Shown one piece after another: positions 871 through 61,797 of a DNA stretch of 64,000 bases. This DNA comes from Malacoraja senta (taxonomy: Eukaryota), in the NCBI GenBank assembly GCA_038087875.1, contig CM075987.1, positions 20,152,001-20,216,000 on the forward strand, read 5' to 3'. The number at the start of each line of letters is the position of its first letter. The stretch's first letter is position 1. Both the position numbers and the translations under genes were made by a program. Below the pieces are notes generated by a model. That model was not told the DNA's origin, made no database searches, and was given only the letters and a program-made list of their open reading frames with translations.

Positions 871-1218
871 TTATGACAAAAATAAACTGAATATACAATT
901 GCAGGAAGGTGCTAAACGTGCATTATGGATTGTTGGCATCTATCTTCAGCTCTGAATTGTTAACATACAATGTTATACAACACTTTATACACATTTTCAA
1001 CGTTTTAGAATATGTGCAAAGTTCAGTGATTCTTTATTAATTTTTTTTATTTGGGATTTTGTCAGTACTGACATTTTACTAAATTTTTCAAACTTCTGAT
1101 CTTTGTGAATCTGGAAAGTTACTTATTCACACCCTACTGTCACAGTTAAACATGGTCATAGCTACAATAGTGTTTGAAAACTGTTGGCGGGAGAAAATAA
1201 ACTCTCTTTACTCTCCAG

Positions 1219-1272
1219 GGTAAAGAAGGCGTCATGGGTCCATTTGGATTTACAGGTCCTAAGGGGCATCCA
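1219..1272 (+). CDS. COL27A1: Collagen alpha-1(XXVII) triple-helix exon, 54 bp (GKEGVMGPFGFTGPKGHP)
   Basis: ctccag|...|gtaagt, phase 0, perfect Gly-X-Y, canonical 54-bp collagen exon. Confidence 0.92.
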
Positions 1273-1399
1273 GTAAGTATTCTTTCCTTTGTCTTTATGA
1301 AGTTAAATCAAAGAATTATTTGAATAATTGGTGGGATTTACAGTTTTTCATTATAACTTCCCTAGGCATGACAAATTTTATTTCCTATTTATTTCTTAG

Positions 1400-4629: not shown

Positions 4630-4743
4630 GTAACTTAATGCCCCTAATCTGCACATTAATATCCTTCATCCGTTTGAAACCATTCTTCATAAAATTTGCA
4701 TTATATAATTAATCATGATTATGTATTTGTTTCCCTTACCCAG

Positions 4744-4912
4744 AACTATCAGAATTCAGACCTACCTTTGATTGACCAGGGAGCAGAGATCTTTAAGACT
4801 CTACACTACCTCAGTAATCTTATCCACAGCATAAAGAACCCTCTGGGCACCAGGGACAATCCTGCCCGGGTCTGCCGTGATCTTATGAACTGTGAGCAGC
4901 GAATGAATGATG
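4744..4912 (+). CDS. COL27A1: COL27A1 C-propeptide (COLFI) exon, 169 bp
   Basis: cccag|[57 protein letters not shown]|gtaagt; COLFI N-terminal motif GT..NPAR.C.DL..C. Confidence 0.95.
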
Positions 4913-5359
4913 GTAAGTTCAGCCCCAACACTAATACTGATTCTTTTTACTAATGCAATGTTTTTCGATATCTGTTTAGTACCTCCCCACGACAACATTA
5001 CCACACAATTTGAATCCTATTATTAATGTATATGACGCAGCACAGATGGACACCATGTAATCCATTTGGCTGCCAGCTCTTTGCTGAAGTTATCCAGTTG
5101 ATCATACTCCCTTCTCTTTCCCAGTTTCCCACTACTTTTTCCCTTCACGAGTTAATCCAATTCACTATTGAATGTACGATTAGATCTTCCACCACTGTTT
5201 CAAGCAGTACATTCAGCATCAAAACACTAATCGTGTACAAAAATATTTTCTTGTGTCACTTCTGATCCTTTGCAAAGCATTTTAAATGTGTATGTTCTGC
5301 TGCAGTTCCTCTGCGAGATCTGCACGTACCAGCCCGTTTGACCTTTTCTAACGCCATCT

Positions 5360-11400: not shown

Positions 11401-13898
11401 AAAGGTTCAAATTGGACCGCCAATAAGTTATTATCTTTCTCACTTTAATAATGAGAGGAGGAAGGTTGCTGTAAAGAGCTGCCGTGCCCATCAATACCAG
11501 GAGGTGACTGTGGCAGGAACAAAATCATAACCATAGCACTACCAAGAGGTGTCTGGTGCTACTGCAAGTGCTTTTCTTTCTTTTTTCTGCAGTGACGATT
11601 GTTTTACCTAAATGTTTGAAAAAAAAATTTTGAACGGTTATTCAAGGTTTTGGAATCTTATTTTATTATTAGATTATGTAGAATATCAAGCTGGGTAAGT
11701 AAATGAGAGAATGATTGCATGTGGAAGGATGAGAAGATGGAGGCACAAGATACTGCAGGCGCAGACGTTTCTGGAGGATCTTAGTGGGTCAGGCAGCATC
11801 TGTGAAGGGAAATGGACAGATGGCATTCCTTCTGACAGGATCGGAGGAGCCTCAAATGCAACATGAATGCTGGCAAAGACTGCTTGGATGAGGGACAACT
11901 TGATTGAAGTGCCTAACATAATACAAGGATTTCCCAACATAGCTACAAAACATCTATTTCCTCTGCTGAGCAAGTCCTGGACATGAACACATATTTGGAT
12001 CTTGGCCATGCACAAGAGAAACCATAAACCGCAAAGTTGAGCAAATCAGGACTTTTCTCCTGAAGAAAGCCAAAGCTGGGTCAGTTGACATGTTCAACAT
12101 TGAAATGGGTAGATTTTGTCTGAGGTTAGGATAGGATCTGAAGGCCATTTCATTGCAGAGCAGGATGGACACAAGGTGGTGAATTGCCACCTCCTGTAAC
12201 AGAATTCCTCAAGCTACAAGGGCATCATTCTACTTTAAGTTGCTGAGTACATAGCTAGTGCATATAGTTACACAACAGATATTGCAACTATCATTTTAAC
12301 CTTGGTCGGAAAGACAAACAGTTCAGTATAATTCTGCAACAAAACTATTACTTTAATTGTTTTAATTCAAAATTAGACGACTATTACAAATGAAAATGAA
12401 AAAATTGCAGAACAAAAAATACATTTAAAAAAATGCTGGGAAACATTCAGCAGCACGAGTAGCATCTATAGATAGAGAAATAGTTAATGATCCATCAGAA
12501 CTGAGAAAAGTGAGAAAACACGTTAGTTTTAAGGTGCAGAGAGGAATGGATAGGGCGTAGGTTAAGACAATGGCAATAACCTCTATTAGTTTAGATTAGT
12601 ATTGTCACATTACTGAGGTAGTGAAAAGCTTTGGTTGCGTGCTATCCAGTCAAAGAATAAAATATATATGATTACAATTAAACCGTCTCTAGTGTACAGA
12701 TAAAGGATAAAGAATACAATATCAAGTGCAAGATAAAGTCTAATTAAAGATAATTAAAAGGTCTCCAATGAGGAAGATAGGAATAGGTTACTTCTGGTTT
12801 CAACCTATATTATAAATCTCTGCAAAGAAAATGGTATATCTATCATCTTAATTTTGACCTCATCCTGTCACTTTAAGTTTAAATAGCAAATACTTAGGAG
12901 AAGCTATGATATGTACTTGAAGAAAAGTAAATTGCAGGATTATGAGTGAAAATATGAGATGTGTAATTAAATTAAGACAGCTTTCGCTGAGAGCCACAGG
13001 GCATGACAAGGAAAATGGCCTCCCGTGCTGCATCAGGCCATGATTCAATGATGTATGTACATTTATCTTGATCCTGATGATAGTTGGGCATTCTGTATAA
13101 TCATTGATCAAATATTGTAATAATGCTTTAAACATATGCAAAGAGTTACACAATAAATATAATGCAAGAAGCAGGAGGAGTGGGCTGTCCAGCCCTTCTA
13201 ACCTCAATCTCCCATAGTCCATCCTTACCCTTCACCTTAATCTTAGCCATCTGAGTCTTGAAAACACTCAGCAACAGAGTCTAGGGCAGAAGATTCCAAG
13301 AGCTCATAACTATCTCGTACGAGATCTTTTTCCTCATTTTAGTCCTAAATGGGACAAGTCATTTGGACCAGAATTCTACATTCTTCAGCCAAAGGAAACG
13401 TTCTCAACAGATACCCTATTATCCTTGTGATTGAGGCAGTGCAGCGTACCTTCTTGCTAATTATTAACCGTGTTTGAACACATCTATTTTTGTCATCTGT
13501 TCGTTTTTGTACACTTGTAGAATCCTTTACATATTCTATGTCCTCTTTTTAGTAGCCATTTTCTAAACATAGCTTCAACAACTCCAAATCTTCAGGTTTG
13601 TGTTATTGCTGTTGGAATATTGAAACCACTGCTTAAACGTGCTTCTTCAGTGTCCATCTCACTGAAAAAAATAAAAACTGATTGAAACTATCCTTTAAGT
13701 TGAAGGTGAAAGATAAAATACTAGATAATTAAAATAAATAAAGTACTACGTGTAATTAATGTTGCATGTTTTTCTTACTAATAATGATTGCTGTGTTTGT
13801 AAGGATCACAATTTGTTAGCCAGTTGAAGCCAGTGCTTTCTAGCCCTATTAAACCAGATTCTAACAAACTGGATTTTCATTCTTTTCTCTGGTTTCAG

Positions 13899-14117
13899 TT
13901 GGATTTTTCAATGGGAAGAGTCCAGATGAACTTTTTGCATTTGCTGAGCTCCGAGGCAGTCCAACACATTACCATTCACTGCCTCAATGTGCCAGTCTGG
14001 ACAGATGGAAGCTCGAACAAGCCATTTAAACAGGCTGTCAAGTTCAAATCCTGGAATGGCCTGGTGCTGGAGGCAGGAGGGCAGTTTATTCCGAAAGTGC
14101 TGCTGGATGATTGCCGG
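13899..14117 (+). CDS. COL27A1: COL27A1 C-propeptide exon, 219 bp
   Basis: tttcag|[34 protein letters not shown]...[24 protein letters not shown]|gtacag. QAV and EAGGQF fit COL27A1 better than COL24A1 (comparison from memory). Confidence 0.95.
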
Positions 14118-14782
14118 GTACAGATCACCTTGAATCAAATCCATCTTCACCTTGTGCCTTTGTTCTTTACATTACTAATGCATTGCTGTATTTTGTTGCT
14201 CCTTATTTTGCACCTAATGCAGAAGTAAAAGTTCTGTATATTGCACGATGCCCAGCATTAACTCAGGAGAACAGGGCATCTCAATTGTTCCATAGCAACA
14301 TTTTCCAATTTGTTACCTCACATCTTAATCAGGCTTGATGACAAATATTTTTAATGATATGGGGTCATGGTCAAGAGCATTTCCGTGCCTCATATCAACA
14401 ACACAACATTTGCAGTTATGGAAGACATGCAGGAGCATCATCGAACAGTATGGGAAATGATATTGTATTTGACAATATTAGATCAGGTTAAAGGAGAAGG
14501 ATTTAGGAAGCAACCAAAGAAGTAAGAGAGACGGAGAGATTTAGTGAAGGGATTCCAGGGCTTTTTGGCCAGCTCAAGCCAAGGCCACTAGGGGTATATG
14601 CATTGACTGTTAGAGGGTTTAAATTCTATCCTAGGGAACAAATGTAAAATTATAATTGCCATTACCATCCTTCAGAAAGAAAGCAAAGTGATTTTTAACT
14701 CAACAGTGAAACCCATTATTTTAGCTTTATTATAAGTAAAATAAAACTGGTGACCATATTCTTTCTCGTTATTGTCTTTCAG

Positions 14783-14929
14783 ATACAAGATGGCCGATGG
14801 CATCAGACTCACTTCATTTTTCACACACAAGACCCCAATCAGCTGCCAATAATCAGCATCTATAACTTACCACAACCAAAGCCAGGAATACATTATCACC
14901 TAGAGGTCGGGCCTGTCTGCTTTCTCTGA
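14783..14929 (+). CDS. COL27A1: COL27A1 terminal coding exon ([48 protein letters not shown])
   Basis: tctttcag| acceptor; ends with fibrillar collagen GPVCFL and TGA at 14927-14929. Confidence 0.96.
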
Positions 14930-18699: not shown

Positions 18700-20635
18700 T
18701 CAATACACAATAGGTGCAGGCCATTTGGCCCTTCGAGCAAGCACCACCATTCAATGTGATCATGGCTGATCATCCACAATCAGTACCCCGCTCCTGCCTT
18801 CTCCCCATATTGCCGACTCCACTATCTTTAAGAGCTCTATCTAACTCTTGAAAGCATCCAGAGAACTGGCCTCCACTGCCTTCTGAGGCAGAAAATTCCA
18901 CAGACTCACAACTCTGTGTGTGAAAAAGTTTTTCCTCATTTCCATTCTAAATGGCTTACCCCTTATTCTTAAACTGTGGCCCCTGGTTCTGGACTCCCCC
19001 AACATTGGGAACATGTTTCCTGCATCTAGCGTGTCCAAACCCTTAATAATCTTATACGTTTCAATAAGATCCCCTCTCATCCTTCTAAATTCCAGAGTAT
19101 ACAAGCCCAGCCGCTCCATTCTATCAACATATGACAGTCCCGCCATCCCGGGAATTAACCTCGTGAACCTACGCTGCACACCCTCAATAGCAAGATTGTC
19201 CTTCCTCAAATTTGGAGACCAAAACTGCACACAATACTCCAGGTGTGGTCTCACTAGGGCCCTGTACAACTGCAGAAGGATATCTTTGCTCCTATACTCA
19301 ACTCCTCTTGTTATGAAGGCCAACATGCCATTCGCTTTCTTCACTGCCTGCTGTACCTGCAAGCTTACTTTCAGTGACTGATGAACAAGGACCCCCAGAT
19401 CCCGTTGTACTTCCCCTTTTCCCAGTTGACACCATTTAGATAATAATCTGCTTTCCTGTTTTTGCCACCAAAGTGGATAACTTCACATTTATCCACATTA
19501 AATTGCATCTGCCATGCATCTGCCCTCTCACCCAACCTGTCCAAGTCACCCTGCATCCTCATAGCCTCTTCACAGTTCATACTGCCACCCAGCATTATGT
19601 CATCTGCAAATTTGCTAATGTTAATTTTAATTCCTTCATCTAGATCATTAATGTATATTGGAAATAGCTGCGGTCCCAGCACCGAGCCTTGCGGTACCCC
19701 ACTAGTCACTGTCTGCCATTCTGAAAGACCCGTTAATCCCTACTCTTTGTTTCCTGTCTGTCAATGAATTTTCTATCCATGTCAGCACTCTACCACCAAT
19801 ACCATGTGCTCTAATTTTGCCCACTAATCTCCTATGTAGGACCTTATCAACTGCTTTCTGAAAGTCCAGGTACACTACTACATCCACTGGCTCTCCCTTG
19901 TCCATTTTCCTAGTTACATCCTCAAAAAATTCCAGATTAGTCAAGCATGATTTCCCCTTCATAAATCCATGCTGACTCGGACCGATCCTATTACTGCTAA
20001 CCAAATGTGCGGCTATTTCATCTTTTATAATTGACTCCAGCATCTTCCCCACCACTGATGTCAGGCTAACTGGTCTATAATTCCCTGTTTTCTCTCTCCC
20101 ACGTTTCTTTAAAAAATGGGATAACATTAGCTGCCCTCCAATTGTGAATCTATAGAACATTGGAGAATGATCACCAATGCATCCACGATTTCCAGAGCCA
20201 CCTCCTTAAGTACCCTGGGATGCAGACCATCAGGCCCTGGGGATTTATCAGCCTTCCCAACACCATTTCCTGCCTAATGTGCATTTCCTTCAGTTCCTCC
20301 GTCACCCTAGATCCTCTGGACAGAGTAGTACAAACTAAAAACTAATACTCAGGGAGATTGTTTGTGTCCTCCTTAGTGAAGACGGATCCAAAGTACCTGT
20401 TCAACTTGTCTGCCATTTCCTTGTTCCCCATAATAAATTCACCTTTTTCAGTCTTCAAGGGTCCAACTTTGGTCTTAACCAATGTTTTCCTCTTTACATA
20501 CCTAAAGAAGCTTTTACTATTCTTTATATTCTTGGCTAAGTTACCTTCGTACCTCATCTTTTCTCCCCGTATTGCCTTTTTAGTTATCTTCTGTTGCTCT
20601 TTAAAAGTTACCCAATGCTCTGGCTTCCCGCTCAT
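18700..20635 (-). mobile_element. CR1 (HER1-like) LINE, 5'-truncated, frameshifted RT
   Basis: ORFs 20342-20815, 19702-20160, 19371-19709 and 18841-19362 give GNYRPVSLTSVVGK, GVPQGSVLGP, KFADD and RPHLEYCVQFWSP. Confidence 0.93.
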
Positions 20636-26981: not shown

Positions 26982-27039
26982 TGGGCAAAACATTTTGCCC
27001 ATATTCAGATTGCAACAAACTCCAAGGCTCCTATATAAA
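26982..27039 (+). promoter_or_regulatory. Core promoter of the lipocalin gene: TATA box, C/EBP-type site, inverted repeat
   Basis: TATATAAA at 27032-27039, 54 bp before the ATG; ATTGCAACA at 27009-27017 (reverse TGTTGCAAT fits T(T/G)NNGNAA(T/G)); TGGGCAAAA-ca-TTTTGCCCA at 26982-27001. Confidence 0.6.
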
Positions 27040-27092
27040 CCCCAGTGCTGCTAACTCTCTACAAGACGTTGGCAAACAACGCGGCCAGGACA

Positions 27093-27209
27093 ATGGTTGC
27101 CCTCTCCCTGCTGATCTTCATCGCTGCCAGCCTGATCCAGTTGTCCGCTGCTGGTCCATCCGACTGTAAGAAGCTCCAGCCGAAAAAGATCGACCTGAAG
27201 AGTCAGGCG
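27093..27209 (+). CDS. Lipocalin (orosomucoid/alpha-1-acid glycoprotein-like) exon 1, signal peptide
   Basis: ACAATGG Kozak context; MVALSLLIFIAASLIQLSAA-GPSDCKKLQPKKIDLKSQA|gtaaga, phase 0. Full CDS join(27093-27209,29386-29528,31793-31863,32790-32900,34311-34414,36204-36245) = 588 bp, 195 aa, open throughout. Confidence 0.88.
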
Positions 27210-27449
27210 GTAAGAAAGCATAAATCAAACTGAAAAGGACAAAAATAATAGCTGGCATTTTTCAAATCTTTGTTTGTGCAAAACCATTTTATTTCTTTTT
27301 TAAAGTGTTTTTTACTGTGGTGAAATGTTTTGCTATAGCAGGCTCCCACAAACAAAACGGTAATGACCAGACAATCTCTTATCAGTGAGAATAGTTGAGG
27401 AGTGAACATTAACAGGACATTATGATAAATGTTATATTAGGATTAGGAC

Positions 27450-27845
27450 TGAGATGTGGAAAAACTTTTTCACCCAGAAAGTTGTGAATCTGTGGAATTC
27501 TCTGCCACAGAAGGCAGTGGAGGCCAGTTCACTGGATATTTTTAAGAGAAAGTTAGATTTAGCTCTTAGGGTTAAAGGAATCAAGGGATATGGGGGAAAA
27601 AAACAGGAATGGGGTACTGATTTTAGATCTGAAGAAGGGTCACGACCTGAAACGTCATCCATTCCTTGTCTGCCTGACCCGCTGAGTTACTCCAGCATTT
27701 TGTGTCTACCTTCGATTTAAACCAGCATCTGCAGTTCTTTCCTACTGATTTTAGATGATCAACCATAATCATATTGAATGGCGGTGCTGGCTTGAAGGGC
27801 CAAATGGCCTACTCCTGCGCCTATTTTTCTATGTCTATGTTTCTA
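27450..27845 (+). mobile_element. CR1 3' tail interrupted by a 114-bp Penelope-derived insert (27629-27742)
   Basis: FFTQKVVNLWNSLP motif; insert flanked by the 14-bp direct repeat TACTGATTTTAGAT (27615-27628, 27743-27756). Confidence 0.85.
27629..27656 (+). ncRNA. Minimal hammerhead-ribozyme motif of Penelope-like-element type
   Basis: CTGAAGA-A-GGGTC ac GACCT-GAAA-CG-TC: CUGANGA core, stem II, GAAA, palindromic ACGU stem III, GUC cleavage triplet. Activity untested. Confidence 0.6.
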
Positions 27846-29385
27846 AATCATTAAAATGGTGCAATGAGATCTTTTATGACATTCTTGGAGGGTGATGGTT
27901 TAACAATTGCATCGAAAGGTAGCTCAAGAGTGTTTTGTTTATGATGGAGACCTGAACCTTGTCTAAATAACACGGTACAACTGACCCATTGAATACATGA
28001 GTACTTGACTTTGATTCAGAACATGCAAACCTTCCGTCACTTCTCTCAGAGAGATACACCAATTTGTCCTTGAAATCTCCAGTAATGAAATTGGATTTTG
28101 GATTCAGGCGAGGATCTGACAATCAGGACGATGGAACCAAACTGCATTTTGCTGTTTTTCCATTCATTCGTTATGAAAGTGTTGGAGTTGATGTTGGGAA
28201 GGACCATTGGAATGAGTTAAAAATTATGGAACCGAGTCTTTTCACTCTCCCAATTGGCCGTGGGGAGAATGGGCACAAGGATGGATGTGTCAGCCGACTA
28301 ATGACATGAGTGTTGGGGATGGAACAAGATGCCAGGTGAGGAGACCTCTGAGAGTACACTCAGCCAGCGGTGGGAACCCATTGGAAGAGTGTCTCCAGTT
28401 CTCAGCTAAGCTTCAGTTACCATGGCTTGCGTGGTTCTGCTTTACAAACCTGACTGATCTCTCCAGCCATTGAGGAGTTGGTGGACAGCAAATCAGGAAC
28501 GTGGGTTCCATCAACCATTCCATCAACCATGCCACAATGTAGACCCACCCTGCAGTGTGACAAAGAAGGGGAGGTCTCCAGTGGCCAGGGCAATATTCAC
28601 GCTTCATCCAAAGTCATTGACACCAACAATCAACTATTTATCCCCTTCCTGCTTAAAGCAGCTTTCAGGGCATGGATGGTTGCTGCGTTTCAGATATAAT
28701 AGAGTCACACAGCATGGAAACAGGCCCTTCAGCCCAACTTATCCATGCCAATCAAGATGCCCCATCTAAGCTAATCCCATTTGCCAGTGTTTGGCCCATA
28801 CCAGTCTAAACCTTTCCTATCCATGCACCTGTCCAAGTGTCTTATAAATGTTGTTATAGTATCGGTTTCAACTGCCTCCTATGGCAGATCATTTCATATA
28901 CCCATCACCTTCCAAGTAAAGAAGTTTCCCCTCATGCTCCTGATAAATCTTGCCCCTCTAAACTTAAATCCAGGTCTGGTTTTTGATTTCCCTATCTTGA
29001 GTTAAAACTTCTGTGCATTCATCCTCATGGTTTTATACACCACCACAAGATCATCCCTCAGTCTCTTGTGCTCCAAGGGAAAAAGTCCTAACCCTCCCGA
29101 CCTCTCCCTATAGCTCAGGCCTTCAAGTTCTGGCAACATTCTCATAAATCTTTCCTGCACTCGTTCCAGCTCCAGAGAGCTTGGTTCAAGTTTACCGACA
29201 GTATAATGTCTATACTTTATAAGAACCTCATTGTTTGTAAATTACTTTGAGACATCCTGACAAGCTTTGTTGTACCTTTGAAGATTATGTCACAGAACCT
29301 GTGTCTATAGAAGAAATGTTGAGAAACCTTTAGCATCCACCGTCCATTCACAACGATGCCTTGTTCTCTTCTTCATCTCCAATAG

Positions 29386-29528
29386 TTCTCTGGCAAATGG
29401 TACTTGCTGCGCTGGGCAACACAGTATGAGCCTTATCGAAAGGAGTTTGGCCACGTGGACAATGCATACTTTGTCAACTCACCTGTTGTCCGAATGAACA
29501 AAACATTGATGAAGGGCTACATGCGAGT
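29386..29528 (+). CDS. Lipocalin exon 2, 143 bp, SCR1 motif
   Basis: ccaatag|FSGKWYLLRWATQYEPYRKEFGHVDNAYFVNSPVVRMNKTLMKGYMR-GT|gtaagt; the G-x-W-Y lipocalin signature sits at the exon start; phase 2 out. Confidence 0.9.
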
Positions 29529-29817
29529 GTAAGTACACTTTACGCAGGGTCTTCCATCTCGTCCCTCTTTGGTAACTGGCTAAGCACATTCAGTCTGTGA
29601 CCCTGGCCATGCACACCGGCACCACAGGTAGTGTGGCTGCCTGGGCTTTATCCCAACATCCAGTGCCATCTGTGTGGAGTTTGCACGTTCACCCTGCGAC
29701 CGTGTGGGATTCCTCCGGGTGCTCCAGTTTCTGGACCTGGGGATTGGTATCTTAAGTTACCACTGCGGGGTAGCACATGAATGTGGAGGAGTTGATGCAA
29801 AAAGATTATAGAGAACA

Positions 29818-30123
29818 GTGGCACGGCGGCGCAGCGGTAGAGTTGCTGCCTTACAGCGCCAGAGACTCGGGTTCAATCCAGACTACGAGTGCTGTCTGTA
29901 CGGTGTTTGTACGTTCTCCCCGTGACCGTGTGGGTTTTCTCCGAGATCTTCAGTTTCCTCCCACACTCCAAAGACGTACAAGTTTGTAGGTTAATTGACT
30001 TGGTACAAATGTAAATTGTCCCGCGTGTGTGTAGGACAGTGTCAGTGTGGGAGATCGCTGGTTGGTGCGGACTCGGTGGTCCGAAAGGCCTGTTTCCGCG
30101 CTGTATCTCTAAATTAAACTAAA
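29818..30123 (+). mobile_element. tRNA-derived V-SINE (HE1-like), near full length
   Basis: Box A (GGCGCAGCGG), box B (GGTTCAATCC), V-SINE-like core (gtacgttctccccgtgacc), CR1-like tail ending (CTAAA)n. Partial copies near 8625-8775, 17810-17970, 24225-24415 and 38905-39150. Confidence 0.85.
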
Positions 30124-30294
30124 GACGCAGCAAATGATGGGGTTGCTCAAAACCTCTGGTAATAACTTCTTTTTAAGAAGTGTTCACATATTTGCTGCCC
30201 TTCGGATGAGGAGAAATTGATTTTCATGACCAGATAGTGAACCCAGTTGGGAAATCAGTAAACTCTACCCTGGGGGATAACTGATCACTTAAAG

Positions 30295-31397
30295 CCGGGG
30301 TCGGCAACCTTGTGCATAGGGGCCCGATTCCATGTCTGTGAGCGGTTGGAGGGCTGCATCAAATAAAGTTTATTTAATAAACCTCAACATATTTATATAT
30401 TTATTTATACAATGCGCTGTGCGGTTCAGGTCTGAGGGACGGGGACTTCCTGGCTCAGGGAGATCACATAACGGGGGGAGAGAGAGAGAGAGAGAGAGTG
30501 AGGGAGGGAGAGGAGAGAGGAAGCCCGGGACGGAGCAGCCAACCACCACCTCCAGCGGTTGCAGCCGAAGGACACTGTAGCTGGCTGGCGGGCCGGCAGA
30601 AAGCGCTGAGGTGGCGGCCGGTTCCGCTGTCCAGTCCCGGCGGCCACTCGCAGCCACCCGAGCTACTTCCCTCCCCGGCCACAATGCGGTGGCTCCGCAC
30701 CCGGAGCGCCGCGGCAGCGGTGAGTGAGTTGCTGCCATGATCTCCGACCCCCTCCTTCTCAACGCTCCTGCCCTCCCCCCAATTTTGCTACTTTGTGCAG
30801 CCCAGGCCGTGCTGACCCGGGCCAGACTCCCCACACGCTGTGGAAATGAACTCTTCCCACCCAGCGGCGCTGTCCTTTTACAGCCGATTCCCATCTCACA
30901 CAGTTCCAGGGTTGAAGGCGTGCCAGGTTCCGTGGAGCAGTCTCTACGAGAGTGGCATTGCTCGGCCAACTCCACTCCAGTGGACGGCCACTGTCCCTGC
31001 TGCCCCGGTGGAAAGCTGCTCCGTCTTCCCGCCCTGGGGACCGGACCCGAGTCTTGGTAGAATGTCACTATCAGCAAACTGGACCTAGCCACCCAGCCAG
31101 AGAATGGAAATCAGCTGCCAGCAATGAGGGATAGACTTGGCTATCCCTCAGTACAGCAACATCAGGAACAATGTTCCAGGGTGAACGAGCAGCAGGCACT
31201 GCAGCCACTGCAAATGCAAATTCACTTTTAGATGCGGGAAAAAAATATATATACGACCGCAGGCCGGATGTATGCGAAACAATATATATAAATATACAAC
31301 CGCGGGCTGGATGAATGCGGGAAAAAAATACTGCGGGTTGGATGATTTCCAGTTATGGGCCGCATTCGGTCCGGGGGCCGTAGGTTGCCATACCTTG
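30295..31397. mobile_element. Non-autonomous hAT (Charlie-like) element with GC-rich interior
   Basis: Termini CCGGGGTCGGCAACCT / AGGTTGCCATACCTTG; subterminal blocks shared with 33189-33647; no TSD recognisable. Confidence 0.65.
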
Positions 31398-31792
31398 GGA
31401 GGGGGAGTTTCTTTGGATGCTCAGGTCAAGTCTGGAATAGCACAGAACAATTCTTCCTCCGAGCCTTTTAGAAATATAATTATGGGTAGATGTCAATAGT
31501 TTCCACTAGTGGAAGAGTCTTAAAGGAAGTGGAGCAGCTGGGGGGTGGGGTGGGTAAAACATGGTTTCAAAATATAGGGCCGGTTATTTAAAACCAAAAT
31601 TAACTACATTCTACACCAGATGCTCCATTGAGTGCAGCAACTCAATGGAGCATCCACAGGAGAGGGAATAATCCAGCAACAAATCAATCCATCAAATGAA
31701 CTGAGGCCCCGAGGAAGGAATAAAGCCATTAACACAGAGAAGGGACTCACCAGTTCTTACTTGGACACCAATTCCTTTTTTATTTCACCCAG

Positions 31793-31863
31793 AGGAGACG
31801 AATGCATCTCGGAAATAGAGGCCTACCGCTTGTCAAATAATGGCATGGATTTCACCTGTGAAG
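31793..31863 (+). CDS. Lipocalin exon 3, 71 bp, GC donor
   Basis: ttttatttcacccag|A-GDECISEIEAYRLSNNGMDFTCE-G|gcaagt; phase 2 in, phase 1 out; carries the conserved barrel Cys. Confidence 0.85.
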
Positions 31864-32789
31864 GCAAGTACCAATATTAGGAGTTAAGCAAAAGTATGAT
31901 TGATTGTGCATCTTAGCTCAGCAAATCACAATTATGATTTCCAAAAGTCATCTGAACGGATATATAGACAGGAAGGGCGCAGAGCAATATGGGCCAAATA
32001 CAGGCAAATGTGGCTAGCCCAGAATGCCAACGTTGGTATGGACAAGTTGGGCCAAAGGGCCTGTTTCCATGCTCCATCATTCAATGGGTAGAAATATCAC
32101 GTTGATAAAACTCAATAGTAACATTCAAGCTTGGGAAAATCATTAGCCACTCAATTCTGCCATACAAGAGGATGATGTCAGGTAAATCTAACTTTTGTCT
32201 AGAAATTGGAATGCAAAGCACACTTTCGTTTAGGAACTAATCATGCAATGTTGAATAGGACGGGAGTGAATTTGCTCTGTCTGTAATAAATTCCATGGTC
32301 AATGCCAGATAGTCTTTCGGGTTTTAACCTTTCTCCGTTTGGACATCATAGTAATGTTACAACAAGCGCATTTCCCAGGCTTAACACAGGGCATTTCAGC
32401 GAGTATCTGAATTCACCTGGGGCAGACAGGTAAGGACAGCAGACACCCACCGGTAAGACACAGGTGAACCACATTTTTTAAATGATAAAATAACAGTTCT
32501 TGTGATCATTATTACAAAGTCCAGTTTCTATTTTAAATTCCAGGTTATTTACTGAATTTAATTTCCTCAGGTAAGATTTGAACTCTGGGCTGGATTGTCA
32601 GTCCAGGCCTTCGGCCTATTGATCCCAGAATCTAAGCACAGTGCCACCAGTTTATTGTTTTTCAATAACCTGCTACAAGTAATTCCCAATCCTGCCGTGC
32701 AACACTATATCAGCAATGGGCCCCACAATGCTAAACATTGCTTTCTACTTGGAAAGTTGGTAAAGTTTTTTTTCTTTGTTCACTTGTAG

Positions 32790-32900
32790 CAAAACCATTT
32801 ATGGTGTTCAGAATTCTCAACACAAAGATTCGAACTTCCTTGCTTTTCCACATGCAAGAGAAGAGAGAAGGCAGAATCTTCCACACAATCTCCCTCTATG
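32790..32900 (+). CDS. Lipocalin exon 4, 111 bp
   Basis: cacttgtag|CA-KPFMVFRILNTKIRTSLLFHMQEKREGRIFHTISLY-G|gtgagt; phase 1/1; ends at the start of SCR3 (SLY-GR). Confidence 0.88.
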
Positions 32901-33188
32901 GTGAGTGCACGGTGCCTTATGCAGGTAAACGCTCAATGAAGAATAGTTTCTAAGCCACGGTATCTTTAGTTTAGTTTATTATTGTCACATGTATCAAGGT
33001 GTAGCAAAAAGATTTTTGTTGCATGCTATCCAGTCAAAGACAAGACTATAACTGATTACAACCAGGTCGTCCACAATGTCCAGATAAAAGGTACAACCGT
33101 TAGTGCAATATAAAATCCAATAAAGTCAGATTAAAGATAGTTCAAAGGTCTCCAAAGAGGTAGGTGAGGTCAGTACCACACTCTAGCT

Positions 33189-33647
33189 CAGGGGTGGGCA
33201 ACCTTGTTCTGCATAGGGGCCGGGACGCATGTCTGTGAGCGGATGGCGGGCCACATCTATCACGTGTACATATGGATCCCGCCCCCATCCCGCCCCAGAT
33301 GCCAGGCATCAAATCACGTGTTCACAGAAGGAAGACAAAAATGCTGAGGAAACTCAGCGGGTGAGGCAGCCTCATGCAATCCTTGCATGTCTCACCCGCT
33401 GAGTTTCTCCAGCATTTTTGTCTACCTTCGATTTTTCCAGCATCTTTCTTAAACGTGTTCACAGAAGGTGCGCGGCCGTGCCGGCGGCTTTGCGCAGGAT
33501 ACGGTACAGCCAGAGCTCGGCTGTGCGCTTGGCCACACTCGGGGCGGGCGCTCGGCGGGCCGGATGATTACGGGGGGGAAAAATCCACCTGCGGGCCAGA
33601 TGATTTCGGGTTATGGGCCGCATTCGGCCATAGGTTGCCGACCCCTG
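33189..33647. mobile_element. Non-autonomous hAT-Charlie-like element with 8-bp TSD
   Basis: TIRs CAGGGGTGGGCAACC / GGTTGCCGACCCCTG; TSD CTCTAGCT at 33181-33188 and 33648-33655; inserted into a minus-strand LINE tail (~32965-33880). Confidence 0.9.
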
Positions 33648-34310
33648 CTCTAGCTGGTGAGAAGATGGTTCAGATGCCTGATAGCAGCTGGGAAGAAACA
33701 GTTTCCAAATTGGAAGTATGAGTTTTCAAATTGCTGTACCTCTTAGCTGAGGGTGTGACCAGGGTAAAACTGGTCCTCAAATATGCTGGTGGTCTTGCCG
33801 AGGCAGCGTGGTCTAGAGGGAGTCAATGGAAGGGAGGTTGGTTTGCCTGATGTCTGGGCAATGTCCGCAACTCTCTGCAGTGGGTCAGAGGATTTATCTT
33901 ACTTCCTACCCTGTTGTCCCTCCATCTTCCCCTCCAGTTGCCCCTCATATTCATTCATCTCCCTGCTCTTTTAATCTTCCCATCTATCTTTACTTCTACC
34001 TGCTCACCTCCACTCCCCTCCGCCCCCCTTGCCGCCTTCCCTAGTCCCTATGTTACGTACCAACACACTTCCTCCTCCTCTTCCCCTTCCCTTTCTACTT
34101 CCCTCTACAAGCCTCTCTCTCTTCTACCAACTTGCCCCTTTCACCCACCCCTTGGCCCAAAGGCACCGCCTCCAGTAGTCTTGCAAACAATATTGCCTCT
34201 TTATCAGATGTGTCTTCTCGTAGTCAACATGTACCAAGGCAAATAGGAAATTACCTCCTCAAGATTTATGACCAGAGAACATAAACCATTTTATTTTTGT
34301 TCATCAACAG

Positions 34311-34414
34311 GTCGAAACCCAATTGCAATGGAGAATGAATTGAAGATCTTTGATGATCAGGTGCAATGTGTGGGAATGAAGAGTGATAAAATTGTAGTCC
34401 CACCTCGACTGAAG
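34311..34414 (+). CDS. Lipocalin exon 5, 104 bp
   Basis: tcaacag|GT-RNPIAMENELKIFDDQVQCVGMKSDKIVVPPRLK|gttggc; completes LYGR (SCR3) and the C-terminal helix with its Cys; phase 0 out. Confidence 0.88.
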
Positions 34415-34456
34415 GTTGGCTTCTTATTTTCATTCCAGACATAAATGCTCAGGATA

Positions 34457-34874
34457 GACACAAATAGCTGGAGTCACTCAGCGGGTCAGGCAGCATCTTT
34501 GGAGAGATGGAATAGGTGACATTTCGGGTCGAGACCCTTCCCCTGAAGAAGGGTCTCGACCTGAAATGTCACCTATTCATAGATACATAGAAACATAGAA
34601 AATAGGTGCAGGAGTAGGCCATTCGGCCCTTCGAGCCTGCACCGCCATTCCATATGATCATGGCTGATCATCCAACTCAGTATCCCGTACCTGCCTTCTC
34701 TCCATACCCCCTGATCCCCTTAGCCACAAGGGCCGCATCTAACTCCCTCTTAATTATAAGAGGGAGTTAGATGCCTGCATTCCTTTTCTCCAGAGATGCT
34801 GCCTGACCCGCTGAGTTACTCCAGCTTTGTGTGTCTACCTGTGGTTTAAACCAGCATCTGCCGTTCCTTCCTGC
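34457..34874. mobile_element. Penelope-derived short insertion with inverted structure and nested CR1 tail
   Basis: 18-bp direct repeat ACATAAATGCTCAGGATA at 34439-34456 and 34875-34892; head-to-head copies around 34510-34578; CR1 3' end at ~34580-34755. Confidence 0.75.
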
Positions 34875-36203
34875 ACATAAATGCTCAGGATATAGTTTTC
34901 TTGTGACAAGTCATAACTCCCTGAAAATGACAATACAAGCAGATAGAGTGGTAAAGAAGGAATATGATAGGCTTGCTTTCGTAGGTGAGGGGATTGAACA
35001 TAAAAATCAGGATGCATCTTTATGGGAGGTTTATCAAAATGATGCCAGGATTAGGGGGTATTAGCTACAGGGAGAGGTTAGACAGACTTGGATAGATGTC
35101 CCTGGAACATTGGAGATTACGGTGGGACCTGATAGAAGTAGATAAAATTATGAAAGGCATAGATAGGGTAGACAGTCAGAACCTTTTTCTCAGGATGGCA
35201 AACTCAAAGACTAGAGGTCATAGCTTTAAGGTGAGAGGGGTAAAGTTTATAGGAGATGTGCAGAGCAAGTTTTAGTTTTTTTACACTGAGGGTGGTTAGT
35301 GCCCGGAATGTGCTGCTGGGGGTGGTGTTTGCAGAAGATGTGATTGTGGCATTCAAGAGATTTTTAATAGGTACGTGGATATGCAGGGATTTAGGGATAT
35401 GGATTAGGTGTAGGAAGTTAAGAGTTGGTGTTGGCACATTATCGGCCGAAGGGCCTGTTCCTGTGCAGTATTGATCTATGTTCTACGTGATGGGACATGC
35501 TGGTACAGCATTCTGGTACCTTATAAAGTTAAATGCTACATTTTCAAATGGTTCGAATTTTTAATGTTGCAAGGTTAGTACTAAAGTTTAAAAAATAAAA
35601 TGTAATAATTCAATTATGTGGTCAGGCCTTTAAACAGGTTAAGCAGTTTATAGGATGACAATCTGCCCGAGACACCAATAGCAAGGAACATTATGCCTTC
35701 CAGCACCTTTTTTTAATTCAAAATCATTGGTTTTCGCAGCTCAAAAGCAAAGACCTAATACTTATGTCATTATTGGCTCTCGACAATAATTTCCAACTAC
35801 ACCTGACATCTGCCAGTCTCACAAATATGAGTGCATCAGAAATACTGTTCCTGCTCTAAACTGCATCAAAACACTGAGTTCTGGAGTAACTCAGTGATCA
35901 GGCAGCATTTGTGGAGGGAATGGTCCTGACCCAAACGTCACATCACCTATCCATTCTCTCCACAGATGCTGCTTGACCCACCGAGTTACTCCAGCACTTA
36001 GTGATTTACTCGAGATTCCTGCATCTGCAGTTCCTTGTGTGTCTATCAAAAAATCTGTAAACACTTGACTCAAAGTAAACTAGAATTTGTTATCATGCAG
36101 ATGAAGCTCTTTAAATTCCTGATGTACTCTGATAGAATAAACACTGTTGCTGCTGTCTTAAACACGTTTCCCATTACAGAATGCTTTGTTTTCTCTCCTT
36201 CAG

Positions 36204-36245
36204 GCCGAGTGCAGCCCACAAGACACAGTGGAAGCCATCAAATGA
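36204..36245 (+). CDS. Lipocalin exon 6 (AECSPQDTVEAIK*)
   Basis: ttttctctccttcag| acceptor, phase 0, C-terminal Cys, TGA 36243-36245, AATAAA at 36247-36252. Confidence 0.85.
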   Translation, partial: AECSPQDTVEAIK

Positions 36246-39200
36246 AAATAAAAGCACCAACTCCTCCGCAAGGAGGAGCGTTGGAAATCACTGTCCACCA
36301 ACACATTTCCAAAATTAAGTTTCTGTATCAATTCCAAGTTAGCAAAGAGCTAGTCACTGTACACTCATTTAGCACTAGTCCCGAGATTATTTTGTAACAA
36401 GAGTCCCACCAGCAGGTTCTCTCACCGATGGTACAGATTTAAAAGCAGCTTAATCCAACAACAATGCAGGTTCAGTTTGGTTTGTTCAGGTCAGCAAATA
36501 ACGACACTATTCAAACTGTTGGTTTTTAAGCCAAGTTCCCCTCCCTTTTTTCCCTCCTTCTCTTCCCTGTGCCCCATCTGGATGATCTTTTCTCCCTTTC
36601 TCCTTACCCTTCCAGCTGTATCCCTTCCTCTGGCTTCACATTTTGTGCCTCTTCTATCCTTATCTCACACGTTTTATCTTTTCATCTCTGACCGTTGCCT
36701 AATCTGCCAATCAACACCCCCTCCCTCACCTGCATCCATCCGTGTCCCACCCACACCTCTCTTCCAGCTTCTCCCCCCACCCCACTCTAATCAGTCTGGA
36801 GGGTCCCAACCCAAAATGACACCTATCCATGTTCTCCAGAGATGCTGCCTGATCTGCTGAGCTAATCCAGCACTGCATCTTGTTTTTTGTAAACCAACAT
36901 CAGCAGTTCCTTGCCTCAATATCATGACAATGCTCTACCCAACAAGAGTGCAAACTCCACACAGACAGCATTCGAGGTCAGGATCGAACTAGTCTCTGGC
37001 ACTGTAAGATAAATAGCTCTGCCACCTGCACCACTATGGAAATGATTGCTTCGCGAATCTCCTCACCATCTGTGCTATTGATGTAGATTAGACATGTTTG
37101 AGGTCAACTGTAACTCACCCGTGAGAAAAACACAATCAAATCTAGTTATTTGATCTTGACAGGGTTATTAAAGCAATGGATCCCAAGAGAACACAATGCA
37201 CTTGTGTTGCCTTAAATGGCCCCCATTATTGTTTTGATTTAAGGCATTATTCGAAGAGAGCGCAGTGTAATGTCTCTGAATACCAGGTCACAGGAATCCT
37301 TCTATTCAAAGAGTGGGGAATGTTAGTGGAATGGGAGCATTCAATTCTTTAAGAAGTTGTTTTGACAAAAGGACCCGAGAGGAAACAAATACATTTATTT
37401 TAAACAATTTTAATCAGAGTGTATTATTATATTCTGACATAAGGTGTCTGAAAGGGTAGTGGAAATAGATTTAATAATAATGTTCAAAAGGGAATTGGAT
37501 ACATCTTAGAAAAGATAAGCCGTGTTTGGGGAAATTGAAGCAGAGTGGGATAATTAGATAACTCCAGGAGCCGGCAAAGTCGCAACAAATTGGCAGCTCT
37601 CCATTTCAAATGATGAACCAATATATTGTTGAGTTTAAAACTCCTACATGCTATCAGTTTGCTGTCATTGAGAAAAGAACAGAATGATAATAGACAATAG
37701 ATAATAGACAAAGAATGAGGAAAAATGAGAATGTTCAGCTTCATCTGTTCCTCCCATTCCATGGTTCCAGTTGCCTTTTCCTTTTTCCTTGTCTGCTTCC
37801 ACCAATCACCCACCTACCTCAATTTCTCAATTCTACCCCTTCACATTCCACCCCTTCACACTCCACTTCCCCCCCCTCCCCCCCACCCCATGGTCTCTAT
37901 CTGCCCCTCATCTTCTCCTATGTACACCTATCACATGATGGCCCATCTCACCCCTCCTCCTTCCTGCAAACTGGCCATCTTCCCTCTCCACTCAGTCCTG
38001 ATGTAGGGTCTCGGCTCAAAACCTAGGCCATCCCTTCCTCTCACACCCCCTCTCCAGCAGATGATGCTCAACCTGCTAAATCAACACTAGTTTATTAGCG
38101 TGCTTCATTTTGCTTGCAATTTCACTAGAGTGACAGTGGCACTATAACAGTGGGCCATGGGATCTTCGTGCACTTAGTATGCATAACAGCAGAACATGTG
38201 AATGGGAAGAAGAGAATTAGATAAAAAACGACCATCAAGATGCCAATTTCTGAACCACATTGTCCTTCTTTTAGTGAGGTAGATGGATATGTAGGGAATG
38301 GATGGATATGGATCAAGTGCAGGAGAGATTGATTTAACCTGACGTCATGTTCAGCATGGACATCGTGGGCCGAAAGGCCTGTTCCTCTGCTATACTTGTT
38401 CGATGTTCTATGTAGTCAGATAATAATTAATCTTCCTAGAATAAAGGAACCATTTAGAAATACATCCATGTGGAAAAGGAATGACTTATTCTTTCTTGTA
38501 CCCAACTTGTAAGTGTACCACACTGTTGCCATGTGATACGGACAAGTTCACCATCAATATTTCTTTCTTGGGAATAAAACTTTACTTTGCACAGCACTAT
38601 ACTGCCAATTATTTGTGTACTTATTAATTAAATGTATTTCAGTATCAGATGGGATGTTCCAAAAGGTCAATTTTAAGTTGAAATAGTGAATGAATGTAAG
38701 ATAAATGGAAATGACAGTCATAATCATAAGTCATAATGATCATAAGTCATAGCAGTAGAATGAGGCCATTTGGCTACTCCGTCATTCAATCATGGCTGAT
38801 CTATCTTTCCCTCTCAACTCCATTCTCCTGCCTTCCCCCCCATAACCCCTGATGTACTAATCAAGAATCAGTCGTCTCCCACTTTGATTCCTCTGCTCAC
38901 CTGCTCTTTGTTTACTTTAGAATGGAAAAGCTGGAAACAGGCACTTCGGCCCACTGAGCCCACACCGACCATCGATCACCCGTGCATACGATTTCCATGT
39001 TTCTCATCCACTCCCTACACACTAGGGGTAATTTACAGAGGCCAATTAATCTAGAAAATTCGCACATCTTTGAGATGTGGGAAGAAACCCACGTGGTCAC
39101 AGGGAGGACGTGCAAACTCTGCAAGACAGTACCAAGGTCTACCAGCTGCACTACTATGCCACCCTTTTTGGGCATTTCCTCTTTGGCCATGTCCTCACCC

Positions 39201-44099: not shown

Positions 44100-46775
44100 C
44101 AAGCTTCTTGTCTCACAGAGACATGGCTCACCCCCAGCTCCCCAGACTCAGCGGTCCAGCCTGAAGGGTTCTCCATCCACCGTATGGACCGTACACTGGC
44201 ATCTGGGAAAGGGAGAGGAGGGGGCGTCTGCCTCATGGTCAACTCTGCGTGGTGCTCAGACGTGGCAGTCCTGTCCAACTCCTGCTCTCCACACCTCGAA
44301 CATCTGGCGGTGAAGTGCCGTCCCTTCTACCTCCCAAGGGAATTCACCTCCATCATCCTGACCGCGGTCTACATCCCACCCCAGGCAGACGTCCGTCTGG
44401 CACTGGAGGAGCTGCACGCCATGGTCAACAAACACCAGACGTCTTACCCCGAGGCGTTCACCACCATAGCCGGGGACTTCAATAAGGCAAACCTAAAGAA
44501 ATCACTCCCTAACTTCCACCAACATGTCTCCTGCTGCACCAGAGGACGAAACACGCTTGACCACTGCTACACGACCATCAAGAATGCCTATCGTTCTATC
44601 CCTCGCCCTCACTTCGGTAAATCCGACCATACCGCGGTGCTGCTTCTTCCTGCCTACAGGCAGCAATTAAAGAGCGCACCCCCATAGGGGAGGACAGTAC
44701 AGAGCTGGTCGGTGGGGGGGGGGGGGGGGGAGTGGATCAACTCCAGGACTGTTTGGAGTCTGTAGACTGGGCAATGTTCAAGGACTCGGCAACGGACCTG
44801 AACGAATACGCCACAGTCATTACAGACTTCATTAAGAAATGTGTGGAGGACTGCATCCCCACCAAAACCTTCCGAGCGTTTCCCAATCAGAAACCTTGGA
44901 TGCACTTTGAGATCCGCACTCTTCTGAAGTCCAGACACCGGGCATTCATGTCTGATGATACAGTGGCCTACAAGAAGTCCAGATACGACCTTGGTAAGGC
45001 CATCAAAAAGGCCAAAAGGGACTTCTGCTCCAAACTGGAGGAAGAGACAGATGTTTGGCGGCTGTGCAGGGCCTGAATGCATTCAACTCTTACAAGGCGA
45101 AATCAGGAGGCAGCTCGAATGTCGGCAAAACATCACTCCCTGATGAGCTCAATGCGTTTTACGCACGCTTTGACAGGGAGAACACCGATGTGCCTTGCCG
45201 AGCCCCCATTCGCTGTGATGGTATTTCAGTCTCAGTCAGGAAATCCTTCAGAGGGGTGAACCCTCGAAAAGCGCCTGGACCTGATGGTATACCTGGTCGT
45301 GTTCTAAAAACCTGTGCTGGAGTTTTTACGGACATTTTCAATCTCTCACTTCTGAGGTCTGAGGTTCCCACCTGCTTCAAAAGGGCATCAATTATACCGG
45401 TGCCCAAGAAGAGTAAGGCGACATGCCTCAATGACTATCGACCTGTGGCACTAACGCCTGTGGTGATGAAGTGCTTTGAGAGGTTGATCATGACGCAGAT
45501 CAACTCCTACCTCGACAAAAACCTGGACCCACTGCAGTTCGCTTACGGCCACAACAGATCAACGGTGGATGCGATCTCGCTGGCCCTCCACTCCGCTCTG
45601 GACCACTTGGACAACAAAAACTCATATGTCAGGCTGTTATTCATCGATTACAGCTCGGCATTTAACACAATCATCCCCTCCAAGCTGGTTACCAAACTCG
45701 CAGAACTGGGTCTCTGCGCATCCCTCTGCAATTGGATCCTCGACTTCCTCACTCTCAGACCACAGTCTGTTCGTATTGGTGGAAATGTGTCAGACTCGAT
45801 AACAATTAGCATGGGAGCACCTCAAGGCTGCGTGCTCAGCCCTCTGCTGTACTCACTCTATACTCATGACTGCGTAGCCGGACATAGTGCGAACTCCATC
45901 ATCAAGTTCGCTGACGACACCACTGTTGTGGGACGTATCACTGATGGGGATGAGTCGGAGTATAGAAGAGAGATCGAGCAACTGTCCATATGGTGCCAGC
46001 ACAATAACCTGGCCCTCAACACCAGCAAAACCAAGGAACTGATTGTGGACTTTGGAAGGAGTAGGATGGGGACCCACAGTCCCGTTTATATCAACTGGTC
46101 GGTTGAAAGGGTCAAGAGCTTCAAATTCCTGGGCGTGCACATCTCTGAAGATCTTTCCTGGTCCGAGAACACTGATGCCATTATTAAGAAAGCACATCAG
46201 CACCTCTACTTCCTGAGAAGATTACGGAGAGTCGGTTTGTCAAGGAGGACTCTCTCTAACTTCTACAGGTGCACAGTAAAGAGCATGCTGACCGGTTGCA
46301 TCGTGGCTTGGTTCGGCAACTTGAGCGCCCTGGAGAGGAAAAGACTACAAAATGTAGTAAACACTGCCCAGTCCATCATCGGCTCTGACCTCCCTTCCAT
46401 CGAGGGGATCTATCACAGTCGCTGCCTCAAAAAGGCTGGCAGTATCAACAAGGACCCACACCATCCTGGCCACACACTCATCTCCCTACTACCTTCAGGT
46501 AGAAGGTACAGGAGCCTGAAGACTGCAACGACCAGGTTCAGGAACAGCTACTTCCCCACAGCCATCAGGCTATTAAACCTGACTCGGACATAACACTGAA
46601 CTTTATTAGCCAATACTGTTATTTGCACTTTATCAGTATATTGATTCATGTGTGTATATATTTATAGAATGCCTTGTAGTCAATGCCTATCTATGTTCTG
46701 TTGTGCTGAAGCAAAGCAAGAATTTCATTGTCCTATCAGGGACACATGACAATAAACTCACTTGACTTGACTTGT
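44100..46775 (+). mobile_element. Rex1/Babar-type LINE with APE endonuclease and RT, 5'-truncated, inactive
   Basis: CLTETWL, GRGGGV, AVYIPP, GDFN, LDH and SDH (APE); 512-aa ORF with GAPQGCVLSP and KFADD (RT); stop at 44685-44687 and frameshifts; tail GACAATAAA(CTTGA)n. Confidence 0.95.
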
Positions 46776-60011: not shown

Positions 60012-60044
60012 AATTCCTCCAGTTTGATGACCTCGAAAAGATCC

Positions 60045-61770: not shown

Positions 61771-61797
61771 CTTGCGAGACTAGTACCGCACATGAAC

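Follow-up and report, generated by a model that had tools for sequence, protein, structure and literature searches.

The DNA considered here is a 64,000-nucleotide stretch (the window) of contig CM075987.1 of the skate Malacoraja senta (assembly GCA_038087875.1, positions 20,152,001 to 20,216,000, forward strand). It carries a lipocalin gene at positions 27093-36245 of the plus strand and, upstream on the same strand, exons of the collagen gene COL27A1. A preliminary description, made from the letters alone, had proposed that this is a hidden orthologue of ORM, the gene for alpha-1-acid glycoprotein (AGP). The analysis described below indicated that the gene is an expressed, single-copy, six-exon member of the AGP/ApoM-type branch of the lipocalins, and it favored, with less certainty, the assignment to ORM.

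Gene structure, orthologues and spliced contigs

The gene model was established from the stop-to-stop frames between 26.5 and 36.8 kb together with a reading of the DNA at each border. The exon sizes (117, 143, 71, 111, 104 and 42 nt), the intron phases (0, 2, 1, 1, 0) and the 195-aa open reading frame (ORF) of the preliminary description were recovered with exact borders. Joined by their coordinates, the exons gave a coding sequence (CDS) of 588 nt, that is, 195 codons followed by TGA. The exons are as follows.

27061..27209, plus strand: exon 1; 5' untranslated region (UTR) from about 27061, CDS starting with the ATG at 27093; putative signal peptide and Cys25
29386..29528, plus strand: exon 2 (143 nt); GKWY motif, first barrel strands and sequon N77-K-T
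31793..31863, plus strand: exon 3 (71 nt); encodes Cys91 and Cys109, with the GC donor next to it at 31864-31865
32790..32900, plus strand: exon 4 (111 nt); its last residues are the LYG of the LYGR motif
34311..34414, plus strand: exon 5 (104 nt); C-terminal helix and Cys167
36204..36245, plus strand: coding part of exon 6 (42 nt including TGA); Cys185

All five acceptors are AG and each is preceded by a pyrimidine tract. Four of the donors are GT (GTAAGA, GTAAGT, GTGAGT and GTTGGC) and that of intron 3 is GC (AAG/GCAAGT, 31864-31865), which the preliminary description had not mentioned. An alternative GT four bases past this GC would shift the frame, with loss of the LYGR motif. When four orthologous proteins were compared with the 64-kb window by tblastn, these six exons were the only matches. 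The gene is single-copy, and the assembly has no intronless copy, because a search of the whole assembly (1.94 Gb) with the window protein found matches only in the exons of the window.

A stretch of intron 2 (30370-31110) is GC-rich (about 51% GC), and each of its strands contains open frames in several phases, one of them (minus strand) 246 aa long. No Pfam family matches this stretch, its repetition in the sequencing runs is moderate, and it looks non-coding.

Exon 2 alone, used as the query, led to seven annotated cartilaginous-fish proteins. Three skate RefSeq proteins make up the 90% cluster of the best match. They are listed with the number of differences from the 195-aa window protein and are followed by the next relative.

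XP_055516144.1, Leucoraja erinacea, "major urinary protein 3-like": 3/195 differences
XP_032904691.1, Amblyraja radiata, "major urinary protein 3-like": 2/195 differences
XP_078282085.1, Rhinoraja longicauda, "alpha-1-acid glycoprotein-like": 12/195 differences
XP_007898473.1, the chimaera Callorhinchus milii, "alpha-1-acid glycoprotein": profile E 1.5e-42

With no more than 2, 3 and 12 of 195 positions different in the three skate proteins, the gene model is not a product of chance. Further annotated orthologues were found in sawfish, stingray and manta and in six-gill, horn, saw, epaulette, zebra, hound and cat sharks, under names that vary from "uncharacterized" to "lipocalin-15-like" and "alpha-1-acid glycoprotein-like". 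A word-index search with the alignment as query yielded 12 matches among 4868 candidates, elasmobranch orthologues only. The frame is intact across skates, sharks and a chimaera, with 38 invariant columns in 12 cartilaginous-fish sequences. The gene is not new: models are already public under misleading or generic names, and the RefSeq name "major urinary protein 3-like" is a misnomer. The expectation that the gene was hidden, or annotated only as uncharacterized, did not hold, as the gene is annotated in 13 or more species of cartilaginous fishes, and several of these copies are already named alpha-1-acid glycoprotein(-like).

Spliced junctions were looked for in assembled contigs of four sequencing runs from three studies, the runs being only guessed to be RNA, and contigs with introns removed were present in all four. 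Record 15 of run X3 (872 nt) and record 19 of run X5 (1150 nt) consist of exons 1 and 2, 69 unmatched letters, exons 4, 5 and 6, and 3' UTR. The exon 1-exon 2 junction was found in record 8 of run X2 and the exon 5-exon 6 junction in record 6 of run X1. Use of the GC donor is supported because the 69-letter gap fits the 71-nt exon 3, with two letters of border slack, and not the 75 nt that would result from the next GT. The seven runs guessed to be RNA contain 5-9% of the words sampled from the 9.4-kb gene stretch, which is roughly the share expected of exons plus UTRs. The ends of the transcribed region are marked by two further features.

27032..27039, plus strand: likely TATA box TATATAAA of the lipocalin gene, recognized by its sequence, with a presumed function
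36246..36742, plus strand: 3' UTR, at least this long, from the extents of the contigs

The 5' ends of the spliced contigs lie 22-38 nt downstream of TATATAAA, at 27061, 27073 and 27077, and contigs extend in the 3' direction to 36451, 36505, 36704 and 36742. An AATAAA is located at 36246-36251, directly after the stop codon. Since the contigs continue to 36451-36742, there must be another poly(A) site, whether or not this one is used. Past a high-copy repeat at about 36776-36880, the stretch 36883-37500 is covered by contigs of three runs (X1, X3 and X5) at a depth similar to that of the lipocalin contigs; it represents either an extension of the 3' UTR or another transcript.

Because the genome is without a processed copy, transcripts are the simplest source of the spliced contigs, although the library type is guessed. 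The spliced contigs could instead be DNA of a processed copy, the gene itself being unexpressed or decaying. This would agree with the run records, as none of the 13 runs listed is on record as RNA and one of the four with spliced contigs is flagged "probably DNA". However, the 1.94-Gb assembly has no intronless copy, an intact frame has been conserved from skates and sharks to a chimaera (with 38 invariant columns in 12 sequences), and the contigs both begin 22-38 nt past the TATA box and include 3' UTR. We give this explanation almost no credence.

The protein and its relatives

The window protein scored above the cut-off with two Pfam families, Lipocalin (PF00061, 32.6 bits, cut-off 23) and ApoM (PF11032, 31 bits, cut-off 22), as did all seven of the orthologues that were scored. 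The gene product is, on the evidence of the predicted structure and the N-terminus, a secreted lipocalin: the preliminary description had noted a signal peptide, and the first 20 or so residues are indeed signal peptide-like, with a helix at residues 2-17 in the model. The motifs that had been read from the sequence were also present as described, namely GKWY (residues 42-45) for structurally conserved region (SCR) 1 and LYGR (146-149) for SCR3, with no TDY-type motif. G42 and W44 of the SCR1 G-x-W and the SCR3 arginine R149 were invariant in all 12 cartilaginous-fish sequences.

Structure prediction with AlphaFold, using a 49-sequence alignment of profile matches, gave a lipocalin barrel of eight strands plus a helix at residues 155-167 (pLDDT 89.0, pTM 0.81). 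A model made with only 12 close sequences reached a pLDDT of 41.6 and was not used. The top Foldseek match was human AGP1 (3kq0, E 5.3e-11), with Ex-FABP, AGP2 and ApoM close behind; the structural alignment with human AGP showed about 16% identity. In VIA-align, alpha-1-microglobulin, AGP, PGDS and ApoM were tied at Z 19-20. The AGP chains (Z 19.8-20.0) had the longest alignments among those listed, covering 164-168 residues (20-191 of the model), and ApoM scored Z 19.2. The modeled fold is clearly that of a lipocalin, yet it does not single out a subfamily.

Going by the RefSeq names "major urinary protein 3-like" and "lipocalin-15-like", the gene would encode a kernel lipocalin, either of the major urinary protein (MUP) or of the LCN15 type. 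A PDB search with the single sequence would agree with them, as darcin (2.1e-6), LCN15 (2.1e-5) and MUP4 (4.2e-5) were the best matches, all above AGP1. However, the MUPs fell outside a strongly supported clade (38 rows, 100/98) that unites the skate gene with AGP and ApoM in the tree described below, and a MUP was among the weakest of the 37 profile matches (E 9.1e-4). In addition, the skate protein is without a TDY-type motif, and two of its cysteines, Cys25 and Cys167, are absent from MUPs. An assignment to the kernel lipocalins is therefore very unlikely.

The conserved cysteines were examined in the 49 aligned proteins, where C25 is present in 45, C91 in all 49, C167 in 44 and C185 in 48; C25 and C167 are also absent from lamprey lipocalins. 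Each of these four residues has its aligned counterpart in every named AGP, and the same four are found in ApoM. They would form two disulfide bonds, C25/C167 and C91/C185. The preliminary description had taken this layout as a sign of ORM; the alignment with AGP stood, but the framework is common to the AGP/ApoM clade and is not specific to ORM. Skates have, in addition, an unpaired Cys109 (with I124 and S127), most sharks have an extra Cys109/Cys127 pair, and stingray and manta have neither. ApoM and coelacanth AGP3-like likewise have a cysteine at aligned position 127.

A profile of 12 cartilaginous-fish sequences was compared with 1.84 billion representative proteins at E <= 1e-3. It produced 37 matches, and names were looked up for 20 of them. 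Those that bear on the relationships of the gene are listed here.

Coelacanth AGP3-like: E 2.6e-25
Leatherback turtle AGP1-like: E 3.7e-16
Paddlefish ApoM-like: E 2.5e-11
Basking-shark ApoM-like: E 3.5e-11
Marsupial, bird and monotreme AGPs, and coelacanth ApoM: E about 1e-10 to 1e-9
Centroberyx "saxitoxin and tetrodotoxin-binding protein 1-like" (PSTBP-like), much weaker: E 1.3e-4
MUP, much weaker: E 9.1e-4; a lamprey lipocalin was also weak

Among the named matches, coelacanth and tetrapod AGPs were the closest outside the cartilaginous fishes, with ApoM after them. The comparison of profiles by hhalign gave 176.6 for the cartilaginous-fish family against AGP (189 columns), 129.0 against ApoM (154 columns) and 130.0 for AGP against ApoM. 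Because 176.6 stands against 129.0 and 130.0, the cartilaginous-fish family is, as far as profile similarity goes, closer to AGP than either is to ApoM.

A maximum-likelihood tree of 41 rows was rooted on two MUPs, the outgroups available being these and one lamprey lipocalin; seven fragmentary or multi-domain matches, one isoform and three further sequences were left out. Within the AGP/ApoM-type clade of 38 rows there were a cartilaginous-fish clade (13 rows, 99/98), a sarcopterygian AGP clade (11 rows, 88/90) and an ApoM clade (7 rows, 99/98). The ApoM clade has its own shark member, the basking-shark ApoM-like protein, and the skate gene is outside it. The backbone is a polytomy that joins these three clades and at least two further coelacanth/gar lineages. 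In the approximately unbiased (AU) test, neither grouping of the cartilaginous-fish clade was rejected, that with AGP (delta log-likelihood 0.19, p 0.484) or that with ApoM (delta log-likelihood 4.19, p 0.315).

These results leave room for the skate gene to be a separate ancient lineage of the AGP/ApoM type, or a sister of ApoM, rather than a one-to-one orthologue of ORM, in which case its place beside COL27A1 would be the ancestral site of the whole group or a coincidence. The polytomy with its additional coelacanth/gar lineages, the AU result for ApoM, the nearly equal Pfam scores for ApoM and Lipocalin, and the Cys127 common to sharks, ApoM and coelacanth AGP3-like are all compatible with such an origin. 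Moreover, no ApoM gene was detected in the skate genome, so one gene could stand for both. However, the searches that gave no significant match, with an ApoM protein and with PF11032, are too insensitive to establish absence, since they missed the window gene as well. The profile-profile score for AGP is clearly higher than that for ApoM, the best profile matches outside the chondrichthyans are named AGP, the basking-shark ApoM-like protein lies in the ApoM clade apart from the skate gene, and the position of the skate gene agrees with the mammalian ORM locus. We consider this origin a possible but rather unlikely one.

The coelacanth clade member LOC135352767 and coelacanth ApoM are on reported contigs that are both 24,554,469 bases long and may be linked.

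COL27A1 and the flanking DNA

The following collagen exons were recognized upstream of the lipocalin gene; the coordinates are those of the open frames that contain them.

1201..1320, plus strand: collagen Gly-X-Y exon frame (COL27A1) with at least five G-X-Y triplets; the positions are frame ends, not exon borders
4693..4950, plus strand: COL27A1 C-propeptide exon frame; PF01410 E 1.4e-9, COLFI positions 3-48
13803..14225, plus strand: COL27A1 C-propeptide exon frame; PF01410 E 4e-12, match at 13911-14123, COLFI 117-188
14699..14926, plus strand: last COL27A1 C-propeptide exon frame, followed by a stop; PF01410 E 4.1e-6, COLFI 187-233 of 233

The middle COLFI exon (13803-14225) retrieved 52 proteins. 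The best of those that carry a name were COL27A1 (76% identity in sturgeon, 69% in frog and 65% in human), compared with only 49-54% for proteins named COL24A1. The preliminary description was thus right about COL27A1 as the neighbor, which is upstream and, like the lipocalin gene, on the plus strand. Between 14.9 and 27.1 kb, the sole Pfam signal on both strands was a reverse-transcriptase remnant of a long interspersed nuclear element (LINE), and for this reason the lipocalin gene is the next recognizable gene 3' of COL27A1, about 12 kb away in the same orientation. Human ORM1 and ORM2 lie directly 3' of COL27A1, also on the same strand. In the mouse, Akna, Orm2, Orm3, Orm1 and Col27a1 were placed on one bacterial artificial chromosome (PMC11225360).

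AKNA had been suggested as a gene to be expected further downstream in the skate, and it was not found, either in a PF12443 search of the skate's own genome, where nothing reached E <= 0.001 and the best match (E 1.73) was on another contig, or in the scans of downstream ORFs. The PF12443 search matched no control genome either and is uninformative either way. From 36.3 to 64 kb (128 ORFs on the plus and 84 on the minus strand) the only domains found were those of transposons, and the same was true of 150 of the 186 ORFs of at least 85 aa in the 100 kb past the window, which cover about the first 80 kb. A search for WHRN through its PDZ domains gave 124 matches, none on CM075987.1, with 150 of 222 candidates scored, and is likewise uninformative.

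An ORF-dense stretch just past the window (about 2.5-7.7 kb within CM075987.1:20216001-20226000) is CT-rich low-complexity DNA. CT-rich tracts with CCCTCT-like units are also present at 33.8-34.2 and 36.5-36.8 kb of the window, and they create many long false frames.

Elsewhere on the same contig (28.5 Mb) there are a TNF-family exon (10,709,852-10,710,157, plus strand) and a V-ATPase G gene (10,754,138-10,759,397, minus strand), about 45 kb from each other and 9.4 Mb from the window. A V-ATPase G exon was matched twice with identical scores, at sites 3.3 kb apart. Two tandem Kunitz exons about 1 kb apart (12,856,529-12,857,688, minus strand) lie 7.3 Mb from the window. These genes fit human 9q32-33, with ATP6V1G1/TNFSF15 and the bikunin part of AMBP as counterparts. 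The V-ATPase G/TNF pair fits ATP6V1G2/TNF of the class III region of the major histocompatibility complex (MHC) equally well, and little weight was given to these genes. No significant lipocalin exons, as expected of AMBP, were found near the Kunitz exons when distant lipocalins were compared by tblastn with 40 kb.

The window also contains LINE-type reverse-transcriptase remnants at 44998-46590 and 5973-7642 (plus strand) and at 19374-20205, 61448-61915 and 76-870 (minus strand). One of the remnants is within a COL27A1 intron and one in the spacer between COL27A1 and the lipocalin gene. That at 44998-46590 is an open frame of 531 aa with a full RVT_1 match (E 2.9e-31). In two of the LINE copies, a Pfam ALKBH8_N match directly behind the reverse transcriptase is apparently part of the element. 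A DDE_3 (Tc1/mariner-type) transposase remnant was found at 59670-60050 (minus strand, E 1.2e-13), and there is an assembly gap of 200 N at 48798-48997.

Interpretation and comparison with known lipocalins

We propose that the skate gene is the positional orthologue of ORM in cartilaginous fishes, with a probability of roughly 0.65. The proposal is based on position and profile similarity and not on a resolved tree. The position, the six exons and the profile scores favor AGP, and the phylogeny gave no decision, as the tree is a polytomy and the AU test rejects neither AGP nor ApoM.

A number of observations weigh against the proposal. In addition to the shape of the tree and the AU result for ApoM, the fold scores of AGP, alpha-1-microglobulin, PGDS and ApoM are all within 1 Z of one another, and the single-sequence PDB search ranks three other lipocalins above AGP1. 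The four cysteines mark the AGP/ApoM type and not ORM alone. AKNA was not found as the downstream neighbor in the searches described above, and the records of the sequencing runs do not confirm that they are RNA. The last point concerns charge and glycosylation. Without its first 20 residues, the window protein has a calculated isoelectric point (pI) of 9.16, and it has one N-glycan sequon, N77; the elasmobranch orthologues have pI values of 8.2-9.6 and 0-3 sequons. In most AGPs of coelacanth, lungfish and tetrapods the sequons number 4-6 and the pI is 4.7-5.4. Judged by composition, then, the elasmobranch proteins lack the biochemical trait that defines an acid glycoprotein. The chimaera protein is acidic (pI 5.4) and has three sequons.

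As to function, the signal peptide would lead to secretion, probably into plasma, and the eight-stranded barrel may carry small hydrophobic ligands. The basic surface suggests a range of ligands or partners unlike that of AGP.

If the gene is an ORM orthologue, it bears on the age of the family. ORM has been described as appearing in terrestrial vertebrates, possibly from APOM, with APOM missing from the cartilaginous-fish sample of that study (PMC8420045), and ORM1-3 are stated to be found in no fish species, in a source whose figure and supplements may show a ghost shark count (PMC13151045). In the literature that could be searched, no description was found of an ORM/AGP gene from cartilaginous fishes or of ORM-COL27A1 linkage outside mammals. 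The presence of an AGP-type lipocalin at the ORM position in a skate argues for a lineage at least as old as the jawed vertebrates. Orthologues exist in sharks, rays and a chimaera, and a shark has a separate ApoM-like gene. We regard as evenly balanced the proposition that an ORM lineage linked to COL27A1 already existed in the jawed-vertebrate ancestor, so that ORM neither was derived from APOM in terrestrial vertebrates nor is absent from fishes. If it is true, ORM and APOM would be old paralogues and may stem from the early genome duplications of vertebrates. The latter suggestion depends on the positions of the human genes, with ORM and APOM in the paralogous regions 9q32-34 and 6p21.3. 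The ancestral ORM-type protein may then have resembled the elasmobranch proteins of today in being a basic carrier with few glycans, the acidic, glycan-rich character being gained later. Given the acidic chimaera protein, elasmobranchs could instead have lost that character.

In a modest but genuine way, the account of lipocalin evolution is corrected by this finding; what it corrects is an interpretation, and it adds no new gene. It bears on the naming of these genes and on models of the binding of drugs and pollutants in the plasma of fishes. The basic, glycan-poor elasmobranch form is a natural contrast for studying the role of the acidic glycan coat of AGP.

Among known systems, the teleost tributyltin-binding proteins and PSTBP belong to the same broad clade as the skate gene, and the PSTBP-like protein is a weak profile match (1.3e-4). 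However, it sits on a very long branch of unsettled position, and nothing links the skate gene to toxin or organotin binding. ApoM is of the same lipocalin branch: the skate protein exceeds the Pfam ApoM cut-off, has the same C25/C91/C167/C185 and has a similar fold score. A six-exon structure may also occur in ApoM. Unlike ApoM, the skate gene is outside the ApoM clade (99/98) and adjoins COL27A1, and the skates are without the C124/C127 pair of ApoM (I124 and S127). Human APOM is in the MHC class III region. The tetrapod ORM1 and ORM2 differ from the skate gene in their products, as the skate protein is only about 16% identical to human AGP, is basic and has one sequon instead of 4-6. They share with it the lipocalin fold, the four-cysteine framework, the absence of a TDY motif and the same-strand adjacency to COL27A1, together with the best profile and profile-profile similarity and the top Foldseek match (3kq0). 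The organization into six exons and five introns is common to both as well (PMC8217824).

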